Assembly (NCBI GenBank): GCA_038087875.1
Contig: CM075988.1
Coordinates: 3,410,001 to 3,474,000, forward strand
Length of the DNA: 64,000 bases
DNA from: Malacoraja senta
Taxonomy: Eukaryota
Direction: 5' to 3'
Every line of letters starts with the position of its first letter. Position 1 is the stretch's first letter. This document shows positions 19,322 to 63,435 of this stretch, piece by piece. Position numbers and translations under genes: made by a program. The notes under the pieces are model-generated. The model was not told the DNA's origin. It saw nothing but the letters and a program-made list of their open reading frames with translations, and did no database searches.

Positions 19322-20404
19322 TTTAGTTCAGGGATACACACACTAGGGACAACGTACGCAGGCCACGGGGAGAACGTACAGTAGAAATTCCATACAGGCA
19401 GCACCTGTAGTTGGGATCGAACCCGGGTCTCTGGCCCTGCTATAGGGCAGCAACTCTACCGCTGCGCCACCATGCCGCCCTCTCTCTTTCTCTTTCTTTC
19501 TCTGCAGAAACATTTCTGACTTTTATCATGTATCTATACAAAAGCTTGTCACGGCACCTTGGTACATGTGGCAATAATAAACTAAACTGCAAGACAGATA
19601 CCACTTTATCTGTTGGGTATTTTCCCTTTACTACAGATTTCCGACAACTGCAGAGTTTATTTCCCATAATTTCAGCAACACTTCAGACTGTCTATGTACA
19701 TCTCCTCCAGCAGACTATCTACAAGAGACAAGCCTTCTCCACCCTATCTCCACCTGCAACACCACACGATCTATCACTCAGTCTCTCTTACCCTCTCAAC
19801 CACTTCAGGCCCTTTGTGTAAGAAGGAACTGCAGATGCTGGTTTAAACCGAAGATAGGGACAAAATGCTGGACAGCAGGACAGGCGTAATCTCTGGAGAG
19901 AAGGGATGGGTGATGTTTCGGGACGAGACCCTTCTTCAGAATGAAAGTCACAGGAAAAGGGCGTGACTGTCAGTCTGAAGAAGGGTCTCAACCTGAAGCG
20001 TCACCCATTCCTTCTCCCCAGAGGCCATTTATTTTGTTCTCCCCTCCTCCTCCCCTCACTGCAACCATTTTACTTCAAGCATTTCATCGTTCAGATGAAA
20101 GATGAGTGATCTGGAATGGTAACTCTGTTAATCTCTGATCTGCACAGAATTTCAAGCTGCTTCTACCCTTATCAACAACCGTGGACTGGGGAAACAACGA
20201 AATGAGGCGCGGTATGTCTGCTACTGAAGATAAAGACAGTGGAAATGACACCGATAGTCTCAAAGTAGAATTAGCTTGGATGCAGTTGAGAAATAGCAAA
20301 GATAAGGAAACATTGGTGGGAGCTGTAGATAGAACCACAAACAGTATTGGTGATGTAGTGGAAAGTGTAACTCGGGAACTTAGAGCACCAAGTCAACAGA
20401 GTCA

Positions 20405-20727
20405 AGAGTTTAGTTTAGTTTAGAGATAAAGCGCTGAAACAGGCCCTTCGGCCCCACCGGGTCCACTCTGACCAGCGATCCCCACACATTAACACCACCT
20501 TACACCCACTAGGGACAATTTTAACATTTACCAAGCCAATTAACCTACGAACCTGTACGTCTTTGGAGTGTGGGAGGAAACCGAAGATCTCGGAGAAAAC
20601 CCACGTAGGTCACGGGATAACATAAAACTCTATACAGACAGCACCCGTAGTCAGGATCGAACCCGGGTTTCCGGCGCTGCATTCGCTGTAAGGCAGCAAC
20701 TCTACCGCTGCGCCATCGTGACTGCCC
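20405..20727 (-). mobile_element. HE1 SINE
   Basis: Reverse-complement full-length copy. Confidence 0.85.
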
Positions 20728-21184
20728 TCAAGAATTATATATATACGTACATATGTACAGACATGCATACATACATACACGTAAAACAAACAGACAATAG
20801 ACAGACAAACAGTGTGAAGAAGGGTCTCGACCGGAAACGTCGCCTATTTCCATTTTCCAGCATCTGCAGTTCCTTCTTAAACAGACAATAATAGTGCAAA
20901 AAGGCAAAAATAACATGCACGTCTATATGTGTAGGAAGGAACTGCAGATGCTGGTTTACACTGAAGATAGACACTAAATGCTGGGGTAACTCAGTGGGAC
21001 AGGCAGCATCTCTCGAGAGAAGGAATGGGTGACGTTTCGGGTCTGAAGAAGGGTCTCGACTCAAAATGTCATCCATTCCTTCTCTCCAGAGATGTTGCCT
21101 GTCCCACTGAGTTACTCCAGCATTTTGAGGCCCCCCAAGTCCATGTAGTTCAGAGCTTATTTGGAAGTTGTGGTGCTTAATAGC

Positions 21185-22312
21185 ACCACTACAAATAAAA
21201 TATAAACTGGGAAATAATCAATATTTTAAATATTTTCAAATATGTGACTATTTGAAAAAATATACAAAAGATCATTATAATATCCCAGCAGATGTATTGG
21301 ATGAAGCAATGCAGATAAAAGCTGAATCAGCAAACTTAATATCATATTTGTATAATATTATCTTAAATGTAGAAATACCATCTACGGAAGGTATTAGAAG
21401 ACTGGGAACAAGAATTAGCTATTAAAATCTCAAAGGAAAGGTGGAATGAACATTTATTAAACGTGCATAAATGTTCAATTAATGTAAGACACACTTTAAT
21501 ACAATTTAAAATTTTACATAGATTATATTATTCAAAAACTAAAATTAATAAAATTTTCCCCAATGTATCATCCATTTGTGATAAATGTCAATCTCAAGAA
21601 GCTACTATAGCGCACTCATTTGTTTTTTGTACAAAAATTCAAAAATTTTGGATTGAAATTTTTGAGATCTTTACAAAATTGTTTAAAATAAAACTGATAC
21701 CAAAAGTAGAATGGATTATCTTCGGAACAACGGAAGATAGTCCTGAACTAAATGTGTTTCAAAAGAAATTAATAGATTACGGGTTAATAACTGGAAAAAA
21801 GTTAATCCTAAAATTCTGGAAAAACGCTCCAATACCAACTATAAACATGTGGATTTCAAATATGTTTGAAACATTACACCTAGAAGAGATAAGACTCCTC
21901 CTGGCAGGTAAACCAGATCACTTCCACCTGACGTGGTCTGCATTTATAGAATTATTACAAGTATAGGGTGCAAAAGTACATTAAAAGTACATTTGCGTGA
22001 TGCTTATAACAAAGTATTTGTTTTTCTCTTTTTTCCTCTTTCTCTTTTTTTTCTTCTTTAGGGTCTATCTCTTAATCCTTTCTTTTTAATTTCTTTTCAA
22101 CAGGGTCTCTGTTCTTTCTTGTTCTCACGTTTTTACACCTTCACTATTTTCCTTCACTTTCTCTTTTTTCTTAATCTCAACCTTTCCTTTTTATCAGTGT
22201 AAAAAATGACGGAGTACATTAATTGTAATAAGATATACGTGATGAGTACTAATGTAATTGGTTGTAATGTAATGTACTTCTAATAAATAAAAATAAAAAA
22301 TAAAAAAATTAA
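21185..22312 (+). mobile_element. L1-clade LINE, 5'-truncated (ORF2 C-terminus, 3' UTR, poly-A)
   Basis: ORF 21463..21966 with QFKILHRLY and CCHC knuckle CDKC...H...C; AT-rich; AATAAA and A-rich tail at ~22283-22315. Confidence 0.9.
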
Positions 22313-60720: not shown

Positions 60721-60724
60721 ATTA

Positions 60725-61860
60725 CTAGACCAAATGCAAACCCATTGCGTCTGCTCCCACAATGCCACATTCCACCACTCACCCGTTCCCCCAAAGCAAT
60801 ATTGTTCAACTCACTCATGGCCCCCAACTGCGCAGGCGCGGCTTATTTCTCCTCATCCCCCAGCACTCCCTCCACCTCTTCACCCTCCCTCTTCAATCAC
60901 CAGAGAGGGAGGGGGTGTAGAGAAGGAGGGGGGGACAGAGAGGGAGAGGGTAGAGAGGGAGAGGCTAGAGAGGGAGGGGGGAAGAGATGGAGGGGGAAGG
61001 GGACGGGGTAGAGAGGTAGAGGGAGGGGGGTAGAGATGGAGGGGGAGGGGTAGAGAGAGGATAGAGGGAGGGGGTGGGGCTGAGAGAGATGGGGATAGAG
61101 AGAGAGAGGGAGGGCAGTAGAGGGAGAGGGAGAGGGGTAGAGTGGGGGGAGGGAGGGTAGAGAGGGAGAGGGCGAGGGAGGGGGTAGACTGGATAGGGGG
61201 GCATGTCCTTCCTCCACCCCTCCCCATCTCCCTCCTCCACACCCACCCCCCCCCCCCCGGTTCTCCCTCTACCACCCCACTCCATACCCCCTCTCCCTCC
61301 TCCTCATTTCCCTCATCCTCCACCCCTCCTATTCCCTGCCCTAGGACCTACTCAGGTCATAGAGCAGCGCCAGGGCCTGGAACTCGGCCTGGTTCTTAGC
61401 CCGGCCCTGGCTGTAGACTCCAGTCATCAGCTCGGCCGCTGCCTTTACTCCAGTGCAGGCCCCGACTACATCTCCGGGCTCATCCCTGACCCCGGACACA
61501 GGCTCGTCCTTGGTCCCAGCGGCAGCTTATTTCTCAGCCCCGGTCACGGCCCCATCCCACGGCATCACCCTCGCCATCGGGCGCTGGCAGCCGCCGCCAC
61601 TCCTCGTTCACGACGAGCTCTGGAGTGCCCCTCCCTCCCGGAGTGTCCCATCCTGCCTTGCGAGTGCATTGTGATTTCACTCGGTTATTTTCTTCCGAGG
61701 GGCAGTTATTAAAATATAAAGGATTAATAACTTCGGAAAGATTGGTGGGAATGCGACGGGAAGATGTTTATTGCCTCCACGGGAAAAATGTGAGTAGGAT
61801 GTCTGAAAATGGGAAGGCTGTGACCTGGCGTTTGGAAGAAAATAGGAATTAACCAGATTT
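60725..61860 (-). mobile_element. Non-autonomous Helitron-like element, tandem copy 2
   Basis: Homologous to 59372-60600; minus-strand end hairpin plus CTAG|T at 60725-60728; followed by (CA)n/(CAGA)n 61861-62220. Confidence 0.65.
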
Positions 61861-62461
61861 ACACACACACACACACACACACACACACACACACACACAC
61901 ACACACACACACACACACACACACACACACACACACACACACAGACAGACAGACAGACAGACAGACAGACAGACAGACAGACAGACAGACAGACAGACAG
62001 ACACAGACACACACACATAGAGACACACGCTGACACACACACGCAGACACACACACACACACAGACACACCCACACACACACACACACCCACACACATGC
62101 ACGCACAGACACACAGACACACACACACATAGAGACACACGCAGACACACACACACACGCAGACACACACACATGCAGACACACACACACGCAGACACAC
62201 ACACAGACAGACACACACACACCAACACGATGAATACTTTTAGTTATATTATATGATATATAATATATGCACACAGATATATACATATATATAATGAAAA
62301 CAATACAATGAAAAATAAAAATGTTCTCTCTCTCTCTCTCTCTCTCTCTCTCTCTCTCTCTCTCTCTCTCTCTCTCTCTCTCTCTCTCTCTCTCTCTTTT
62401 TTTTTTTTACAAATTCTGTAGTGCTGCTGCAAGTAAGAATTACATCATTCTGATTGCGAAC

Positions 62462-63435
62462 AAAACACTCTTGACCCTCTTGACTTGGTGCTCTAAGTTC
62501 CCGAGTTACACTTTCCACTACATCACCAATACTGTTTGTGGTTCTATCTACAGCCTCCACCAATGTTTCCTTATTCTTGCTATTTCTCAACTGCATCCAA
62601 GCTAATTCTACTTCGAGACTGTCTGTGTCATTTCCACTGTCTTTATCTTCAGTAGCAGACATACCGCGCGCCTCATTTCGTTGTTTCCCCAGTCCACTGT
62701 TGTTGATAAGGGTAGAAGCAGCTTGAAATTCTGTGCAGATCAGAGAATAACAGTTACCATTCCAGATCACTCATCTTTCATCTGAACGATGAAATGCTTG
62801 AAGTAAAATGGTTGCAGTGAGGGGAGGAGGAGGGGAGAACAAAAGAAATGGCCACTGGGGAGAAGGAATGGGTGACGCTTCAGGTTGAGACCCTTCTTCA
62901 GACTGACAGTCACGCCCTTTTCCCGTGACTTTCAGTCTGAAGAAGGGTCTCGTCCCGAAACATCACCCATTCCTTCTCTCCAGAGATCATGCCTGTCCTG
63001 CTGTCCAGCATTTTGTCTCTATCTTCAGTTTAAACCAGCATCTGCAGTTCCTTCTTACACAAAGGGCCTGTTGTGGTTGAGAGGGTAAGAGAGACTGAGT
63101 GATAGATCATGTGGTGTTGCAGGTGGAGATAGGGTGGAGAAGGCTTGTCTCTTGTAGATAGTCTGCTGGAGGAGATGTACATAGACAGTCTGAAGTGTTG
63201 CTGAAATTATGGGAAATAAACTCTGCAGTTGTCGGAAATCTGTAGTAAAGGGAAAATACCCAACAGATAAAGTGGTATCTGTCTTGCAGTTTAGTTTATT
63301 ATTGCCACGTGTACCGAGGTGCAGTGACAAGCTTTTGTTGCGTGCTATCCAGTCAGCGGAAAGACAATACATGATTACAATGGATACATTTACAGTGTAT
63401 TGATACATGATAAAAGTCAGAAATGTTGCTGCAGG
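62462..63435 (-). repeat. Outer block of the inverted duplication (mirror of ~19500-20405)
   Basis: Unique sequence such as GCAAGACAGATACCACTTTATCTGTTGGG and GACAGTGGAAATGACAC matches in reverse complement. Confidence 0.92.

Follow-up and report, generated by a model that had tools for sequence, protein, structure and literature searches.

In the known gene pair IDS and IDSP1, part of the parent gene, exon as well as intron sequence, is present as an inverted copy, IDSP1, which lies outside the gene. A copy of comparable make-up, which lies instead in an intron and carries one exon, is described here from the skate Malacoraja senta, in a stretch of 64,000 nucleotides (nt) of assembly GCA_038087875.1 (contig CM075988.1, positions 3,410,001 to 3,474,000 of the forward strand), referred to below as the window and numbered from its first letter. 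The host gene is, by sequence similarity, the sialyltransferase gene ST3GAL4, and the inverted pair of segments at 19502-29995 (left arm, plus strand) and 56155-63434 (right arm, minus strand) is, as a whole and with moderate confidence, best explained as an old inverted segmental duplication within this gene, carried as a tolerated passenger.

The arms resemble the mouse Sry circular RNA locus (PMC4201285) in that long inverted repeats flank exons in one transcription unit; Sry, as described there, has a repeat of >15 kilobases (kb) and a proven circle, whereas the ST3GAL4 arms comprise 3.7 kb in six blocks at 91-99% identity, enclose a loop of 26 kb, which includes a long intron, and hold one exon inside the arm itself. 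As in the accounts of F8 int22h (PMC3211038) and of human inverted-repeat inversions (PMC3961182), a crossover between the arms would break the gene, but the F8 partners are extragenic, 9.5 kb long and 99.9% identical, while the ST3GAL4 arms are both intragenic, shorter, more diverged and linked to no known inversion. The palindromes of the Y chromosome, as treated in PMC3723533, likewise have inverted arms in which some stretches show fewer differences than their age would lead one to expect; identity between the Y arms exceeds 99.9% and conversion was established by population typing, whereas conversion at ST3GAL4 is deduced from the mismatch distribution only. With the ST3Gal IV subfamily of family GT29, as characterised in PMC4379398, the host gene shares the exons for sialylmotifs L, S and VS and an upstream DCPS gene, and differs in that this assembly lacks one of its exons. 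Literature searches that took in few subscription journals and no supplements yielded no report of an inverted duplication within ST3GAL4, nor any paper linking inverted duplication, exon skipping, antisense orientation and pre-mRNA base-pairing.

Self-BLAST and global alignment of the window paired the arms through six inverted blocks in reverse-collinear order. From the outer ends inwards, 19502-20409 pairs with 62467-63434 (28 mismatches in 906 aligned nt), 20737-21184 with 59000-59360 (28/357), 22311-22498 with 58424-58608 (17/184), 27181-28223 with 57398-58423 (14/1021), 28359-29117 with 56635-57397 (18/759) and 29520-29995 with 56155-56634 (22/476), which amounts to 127 mismatches in 3,703 aligned nt (3.4%, or 96.6% identity). 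The original prediction had drawn these collinear blocks with ends that are right to within ~10 nt, and the pairing is far beyond chance. Its claim of a near-perfect duplex of ~2 kb stands for a core of 2,256 aligned nt at 97.6% identity, but has to be qualified in that the core is interrupted by two left-arm bulges (135 and 402 nt) and in that two of the six blocks reach only 91-92% identity. Eight heterologies of at least 20 nt separate the arms, each of which has private indels, with segments present in the left arm only at 20410-20736, 20792-20878, 21185-22310, 22499-27180, 28224-28358 and 29118-29519 and in the right arm only at 58609-58999, 59361-62466 and 63339-63398. The 135-nt piece at 28224-28358 is repeat sequence flanked by a 13-nt direct repeat, and reflects either an insertion with target duplication or a microhomology deletion in the copy. 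The left arm consists of the introns on both sides of a 61-nt coding exon of ST3GAL4, the right arm begins 1.8 kb downstream of the donor site of a 190-nt exon, and the spacer of 26.2 kb between them (29996-56154) contains this exon and a 96-nt exon.

A segmental duplication is a pair of segments of at least 1 kb at 90% identity or more, and the 3,703 aligned nt at 96.6%, inverted and intrachromosomal, fall under this definition. The window was extended by 200 kb on each side (464 kb in all), and within this region ~1,490 of the 3,822 bases in the left-arm blocks recur in the opposite arm and nowhere else. The best self-BLAST match of every block is the opposite arm, and three probes each found exactly two near-identical matches in the genome, namely the two arms. 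The duplication takes in non-repeat sequence and runs collinearly across repeat boundaries; the blocks at 22311-22498 and 29520-29995 consist entirely of repeat-family sequence. Chance pairing of two transposons was considered and rejected on account of the two-copy-only bases and of the opposite arm being the best match throughout. Seven other two-copy segments occur in the 464 kb (165-2,707 nt, with partners within ~21 kb), in comparison with which the arms have the largest span and are the sole carrier of an exon seen.

The 61-nt exon (28617-28677, plus strand, QIIRQILIKTKSHMPAEID), whose AG/GT splice sites are intact, has its antisense copy at 57075-57135 on the minus strand. The alignment bears out what had been predicted of this copy, which has a single synonymous change (CCG to CCA, both Pro, at 57091) and intact AG/GT splice sites. 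It is the only ST3GAL4 exon with a second copy in the genome; no second copy of the 96-nt or 190-nt exon was detected in the 464 kb or among the genome-search matches, which agrees with the earlier observation that minus-strand copies of these exons are lacking. The intact splice sites of the copy carry no weight, since neutrality predicts intact splice dinucleotides with a probability of 0.87-0.91, and one change in 61 nt equals the neutral expectation (p 0.57). Selection on the copied exon was considered on both counts, and none is detectable.

Regarding the host gene, the ST3GAL4 exons were placed by translated searches of the 464 kb and all lie on the plus strand. The first coding exons start at -18504 and -4746, to the left of the window, and are followed by stem exons at 5649-5696, near 8472-8507 and 13035-13070 (both short) and at 16442-16501 (60 nt), by a 101-nt exon at 18379-18479, 1 kb upstream of the left arm, and by the 61-nt exon. 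The first half of sialylmotif L is encoded by the 96-nt exon (35358-35453; PF00777, E 5.8e-8) and the second half by the 190-nt exon (54194-54383), both within the loop, while the sialylmotif-S exon and the last exon lie at window-equivalent positions 98928-99080 and 107037-107117, ~35 and ~43 kb past the window. The identification as skate ST3GAL4 follows from the match of the sialylmotif L and S exons to PF00777 and from best similarity to ST3GAL4, the peptide of the 190-nt exon matching a Leucoraja ST3GAL4-like protein at 92% and another skate ST3GAL4 protein at 94%. As for neighbouring genes, a DCPS exon (C12:3134217) precedes the first coding exon by ~257 kb and shares its plus strand. 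A Pfam scan of 104 of the 375 candidate frames to the right of the gene detected, besides transposon domains, one Ig I-set exon, which is downstream of ST3GAL4 and on the minus strand; the skate locus fits the human gene order, DCPS-ST3GAL4-KIRREL3. The expectation that the transcript continues past 64 kb was confirmed by the sialylmotif-S and last exons beyond the window, and since the gene runs on to these exons on the plus strand, the right arm is intronic and both arms would lie in one pre-mRNA, where they could pair. Transcription through both arms is deduced from this exon order.

The direction of copying was assessed from public read runs compared over 53900-57215 only, a repeat-rich stretch, with the results given as the contigs listed. 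Run X10 comes from another species, with 17 differences in 427 nt around the 190-nt exon, and has a single contig over the 61-nt exon, at a depth of 31.4 compared with 23-26 for neighbouring contigs. This contig has the left-arm letters at the three listed diagnostic sites (57056, 57060 and 57061), and another X10 contig ceases to match at 56634, as the left arm would. On these letters and this stop the left arm is therefore the original, and the copy likely arose after the split from the relative represented by X10, though a second copy may have been collapsed or filtered out in this run.

Polarisation by repeat-family consensus assigned 29 changes to the left and 38 to the right arm (67 in all, p 0.33), 18 of the 127 differences being ambiguous and 42 not polarisable, and both arms have drifted about equally. 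A single error-prone copying event, with mutations in the copy only, was rejected, since the derived changes are symmetric. An absolute date based on the epaulette-shark rate of 7e-10 per generation, as reported in PMC10587355, came to an unbelievable ~2e7 generations and was abandoned in favour of a relative age only. Divergence is uneven among the blocks, from 1.4 to 9.2% (chi-square p 4e-11), and also within them, the positions up to 100 nt from a heterology having 76 mismatches in 1,295 nt (5.9%) and those further inside 51 in 2,408 (2.1%, p 6e-7). The longest perfect match between the arms, 373 nt at 27316-27688, has a rough chance of 3e-4 at the mean divergence and is a candidate conversion tract or crossover substrate. 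Repeat content is not the cause of the pattern, because repeat copies in the core are clean (1 difference in ~290 nt and 4 in ~330) whereas those in the short blocks have diverged (16 in ~200 and 17 in 184). The distribution of mismatches suggests gene conversion between the arms, halting at large indels, a behaviour known from palindromes (PMC3723533).

The history best able to accommodate these observations would be that ~10.5 kb around the 61-nt exon were inserted as a reversed copy into the intron that follows the 190-nt exon, a template switch or the repair of a break being the likely mechanism, and that the copy has since drifted, probably as a tolerated passenger. The arms may occasionally pair as DNA, so that conversion would clean the long blocks while the short blocks and the block edges escape. 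At the level of RNA, splicing would usually have removed the left-arm introns by the time transcription reaches the right arm, 26-44 kb downstream; most transcripts would splice normally, and the by-products would be limited to low amounts of a circle of 286 nt (96+190) or 347 nt (61+96+190) and to a degree of editing within introns. The original prediction did not include the larger circle, nor did it consider that the arms might undergo conversion or inversion with each other; the missing exon and the gap in the scaffold, both discussed below, are likewise additions to it.

A more consequential role in RNA processing, in which the arms form a built-in switch that diverts a real share of transcripts to circles or to frame-shifting skips and so lowers ST3GAL4 output, is unlikely, although several features of the locus argue for it. 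Long inverted repeats flank exons within one gene, as at Sry at the DNA level; the intron that immediately precedes the 96-nt exon contains 915 nt of arm, the copy begins soon after the 190-nt donor, and the cleanest blocks (1.4 and 2.4%) surround the 61-nt exon. Furthermore, the arm forms the strongest inverted match in the 126-kb gene, with a duplex far stabler than local folds, the inverted match around the 96-190 pair alone still amounting to 744 bits plus most of a further block, and skips of 61, 286 or 347 nt would all shift the frame, none being a multiple of three. Sry provides a precedent, and in the minigenes described in PMC4201285 repeats of 30-40 nt suffice for circles, though not every pair works. 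Distance argues against such a switch: Alu editing, in the data presented in PMC526178, peaks at 300-400 nt and falls with distance to a plateau of ~1%, and the edited Alus of PMC2533698 mostly have partners within ~2 kb, 880 of 953 edited intronic Alus having their nearest inverted partner in the same intron, at a mean of 682 bp, as compared with a 26-kb loop here. Back-splicing competes with co-transcriptional splicing, as discussed in PMC8327950, and transcription arrives at the antisense exon only 28 kb beyond the 61-nt exon, when the next exon has been available for splicing for 21 kb. The gene already holds 534 inverted pairs (at least 100 nt, at least 75% identity), of which 28 lie within 3.5 kb, and 16 local inverted pairs touch the arms as competitors; moreover, the copy bears no sign of selection and is apparently absent in the relative X10. 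Burial of the 61-nt exon in the duplex, which had been predicted, is unlikely in view of the 26-kb loop, and a minor circle of 286 or 347 nt is plausible. The one RNA run compared, from another species that seemingly lacks the copy (X24, of which 6% was read), has zero depth on the 190-nt exon and is uninformative in this respect.

It is quite improbable that the right arm is an assembly artefact, produced when the second haplotype of the left arm was attached in reverse close to the end of a contig. A gap of 200 N (66175-66374) follows the arm at 2.7 kb, an exon is missing nearby, none of the listed contigs spans a junction, and the assembly does hold false duplications. One of these, used as a control, is a direct repeat of 21.5 kb over a 200-N gap (C2:176609687-176652806, 99.44% identity), which doubles an exon of another sialyltransferase gene of GT29 and has 28 mismatches, or 0.13%, taken as the allelic level from this one example only. 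While the control is thus direct, gap-straddling and at allelic identity, the arms are inverted, lie within one contig and differ by 26 times as much, in addition to their large heterologies, and the copy and the original share no homology in their flanks. The mis-join that the original prediction named as its refutation was assessed here on sequence grounds, and divergence, private indels, orientation and contig continuity make it unlikely.

Reads of Malacoraja senta point the same way. Runs X1 and X2 are samples of one study, either of which may be the assembled animal, and X2 has a depth of ~3. Run X1 is Malacoraja senta, with no difference in 437 nt around the 190-nt exon (depth 28.8), and its 110-nt contig at 56434-56543, which is identical in both arms and ends beside an arm difference, has a depth of 77.8, or 2.7 times that of the 190-nt exon contig. 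In X2, a 101-nt contig at 56332-56432 equals the right arm exactly, across five right-specific letters and two indels, and a 299-nt contig fits 56632-56741 with two differences and departs where the left arm has its 402-nt segment; between them, contigs of the two runs fit both arm versions. At 56670 (mirror 29082) the X1, X2 and X10 contigs have G where both assembled arms have A, for which recent conversion, polymorphism or a polishing effect is possible.

Little credence is given to a single rearrangement in which insertion of the copy went together with loss of the exon that follows, so that ST3GAL4 would be in frame but probably inactive. What speaks for such damage is that an exon of 44 codons expected between the 190-nt and sialylmotif-S exons (Amblyraja residues 263-306) could be located neither in the 464 kb nor by two genome-wide searches, even though one of these detected the 61-nt exon in both of its copies, of only 20 residues each, and that 6 of 51 residues in the sialylmotif-S exon are private to Malacoraja senta. 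However, the gap at 66175-66374 is the only one between the 190-nt and sialylmotif-S exons and sits exactly where the exon is expected; the ST3GAL4 exons found have no stop, frameshift or broken splice site, which has a rough expected probability of 0.09-0.003 for a gene dead since the arms diverged. Leucoraja has 4 private changes in the same sialylmotif-S exon, and catalytic domains of ST3Gal IV evolve fast, as described in PMC4379398. ST3GAL4 is therefore likely alive, still constrained and tolerant of the copy, judging from its intact exons, which favours placing the missing exon in the scaffold gap as the most likely location. The sialylmotif-S exon begins with GTF, compared with AES or AKS in two other skates, and has a T-to-N change within the motif. 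Accelerated protein evolution was considered from 17 private changes in 286 residues, as against 4 and 7 in two skates, and is not evidence, because the two comparison skates are closer to each other and the counts are not comparable. A Rhinoraja ST3GAL4-like model lacks the 96-nt exon with the first half of sialylmotif L, owing to a gap, an annotation error or a real loss.

Distinctly unlikely, too, is that the arms serve as an active inversion substrate, with crossovers that flip the 26-kb spacer and both sialylmotif-L exons and generate recurrent null alleles. The inverted orientation, the perfect run of 373 nt and the conversion-like pattern imply that the arms meet as DNA, and F8 int22h (PMC3211038) and the inversions discussed in PMC3961182 are precedents. 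The repeats of F8 type are, however, multi-kb and ~99.9% identical, whereas the best block here reaches 98.6% and the longest perfect run covers 373 nt; in the palindromes of PMC3723533 conversion is frequent and inversion rare, and no inverted allele was seen. Finally, a truncated convergent paralogue with its 5' part to the right, offered as an alternative in the original prediction, is very improbable and is dismissed, because, although the minus-strand exon with its splice sites is intact and a gap of unknown size could conceal more copy, the next 200 kb (100 kb had been proposed) contain no continuation of the minus-strand copy and no minus-strand ST3GAL4 exon but the 61-nt one, upstream exons such as the 101-nt exon have single genome matches, the sequence past 63434 has no match to that before 19502, the region to the right holds the last exons of the plus-strand gene itself, and the copy, which ends at 56155, does not extend as far as a catalytic exon.

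Several points nevertheless weigh against the duplication being real and merely a passenger of an intact gene. One ST3GAL4 exon is unaccounted for; the excess of mismatches at block edges could reflect indel-linked mutation or alignment noise, and the small blocks contribute to it; the inner junction (56155) is bridged by none of the contigs listed for 53900-57215; and copy number is poorly gauged by contig depth, here from runs of one study and perhaps of the assembled animal. As to RNA, the inverted match around the 61-96-190 exon group scores 1,764 bits, while no other pair of introns exceeds 636; pairing of 261 nt across the 61-nt exon has a predicted energy of -503 kcal/mol, as against about -55 for local folds, so that the duplex would win if introns linger. 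The mouse Sry circle, according to PMC4201285, needs only ~400 complementary nt, and no RNA of Malacoraja senta was found.

Other elements of the locus include a ~390-nt element at 55430-55820 with inverted ends and an internal 43-nt repeat. It has 2,667 candidates in the genome, those scored being mostly 90-98% identical, and a summed contig depth of about a million in X1 compared with 0-5 in X10, and likely represents a lineage-specific transposon burst. Between the 96-nt and 190-nt exons, two reverse-transcriptase elements at 40562-43562 and 51014-53867 face each other at 68-74% identity, with an RVT_1 domain detected by Pfam in 43166-43804; from their motifs they are presumably DIRS-like. 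Two tandem arrays of a 48-nt unit (33501-33829, 6.9 copies; 34222-34669, 9.4 copies) lie 0.7-1.9 kb upstream of the 96-nt exon. Of the sequence found in the left arm only, 21185-22310 is the 3' end of a long interspersed nuclear element with zf-RVT similarity and an A-rich tail, and the 4.7 kb at 22499-27180 contain retroelement-like frames and a 97% direct repeat (22693-23275/25482-25877). The 3.1-kb segment found in the right arm only consists of a G-rich element present twice head-to-tail at 75-83% identity (59370-60694 and 60723-61955), with microsatellite tails. Past the window, the same ST3GAL4 intron holds two direct duplications of ~3.2 and ~0.5 kb with 98% identity, at window-equivalent positions 73202-80641 and 83007-90269.

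Taken together, the duplication is real and of an ordinary kind, and through its own structure it allows pairing of RNA over long distances to be tested with unusual clarity. For annotators, the ST3GAL4 model is without one exon here, probably owing to the gap. For the gene, the arms would be predicted to act as a conversion donor for one coding exon and as the source of a rare inversion that removes sialylmotif L. The stronger proposition, that a lineage-specific inverted duplication gave ST3GAL4 an antisense exon and conversion-matched arms by which alpha-2,3-sialylation is tuned through 286- and 347-nt circles and skips, is held to be rather doubtful; if true, it would represent a natural and datable birth of a Sry-like RNA switch from a segmental duplication, with copy-less sister species as controls. 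The locus neatly illustrates that a vertebrate gene can tolerate an inverted duplication within itself, and, with a duplex of 2.3 kb at 97.6% identity closing a 26-kb loop in one skate and apparently absent from a relative, it provides a natural experiment on the maximal spacing at which inverted repeats may still drive back-splicing, editing or exon masking.

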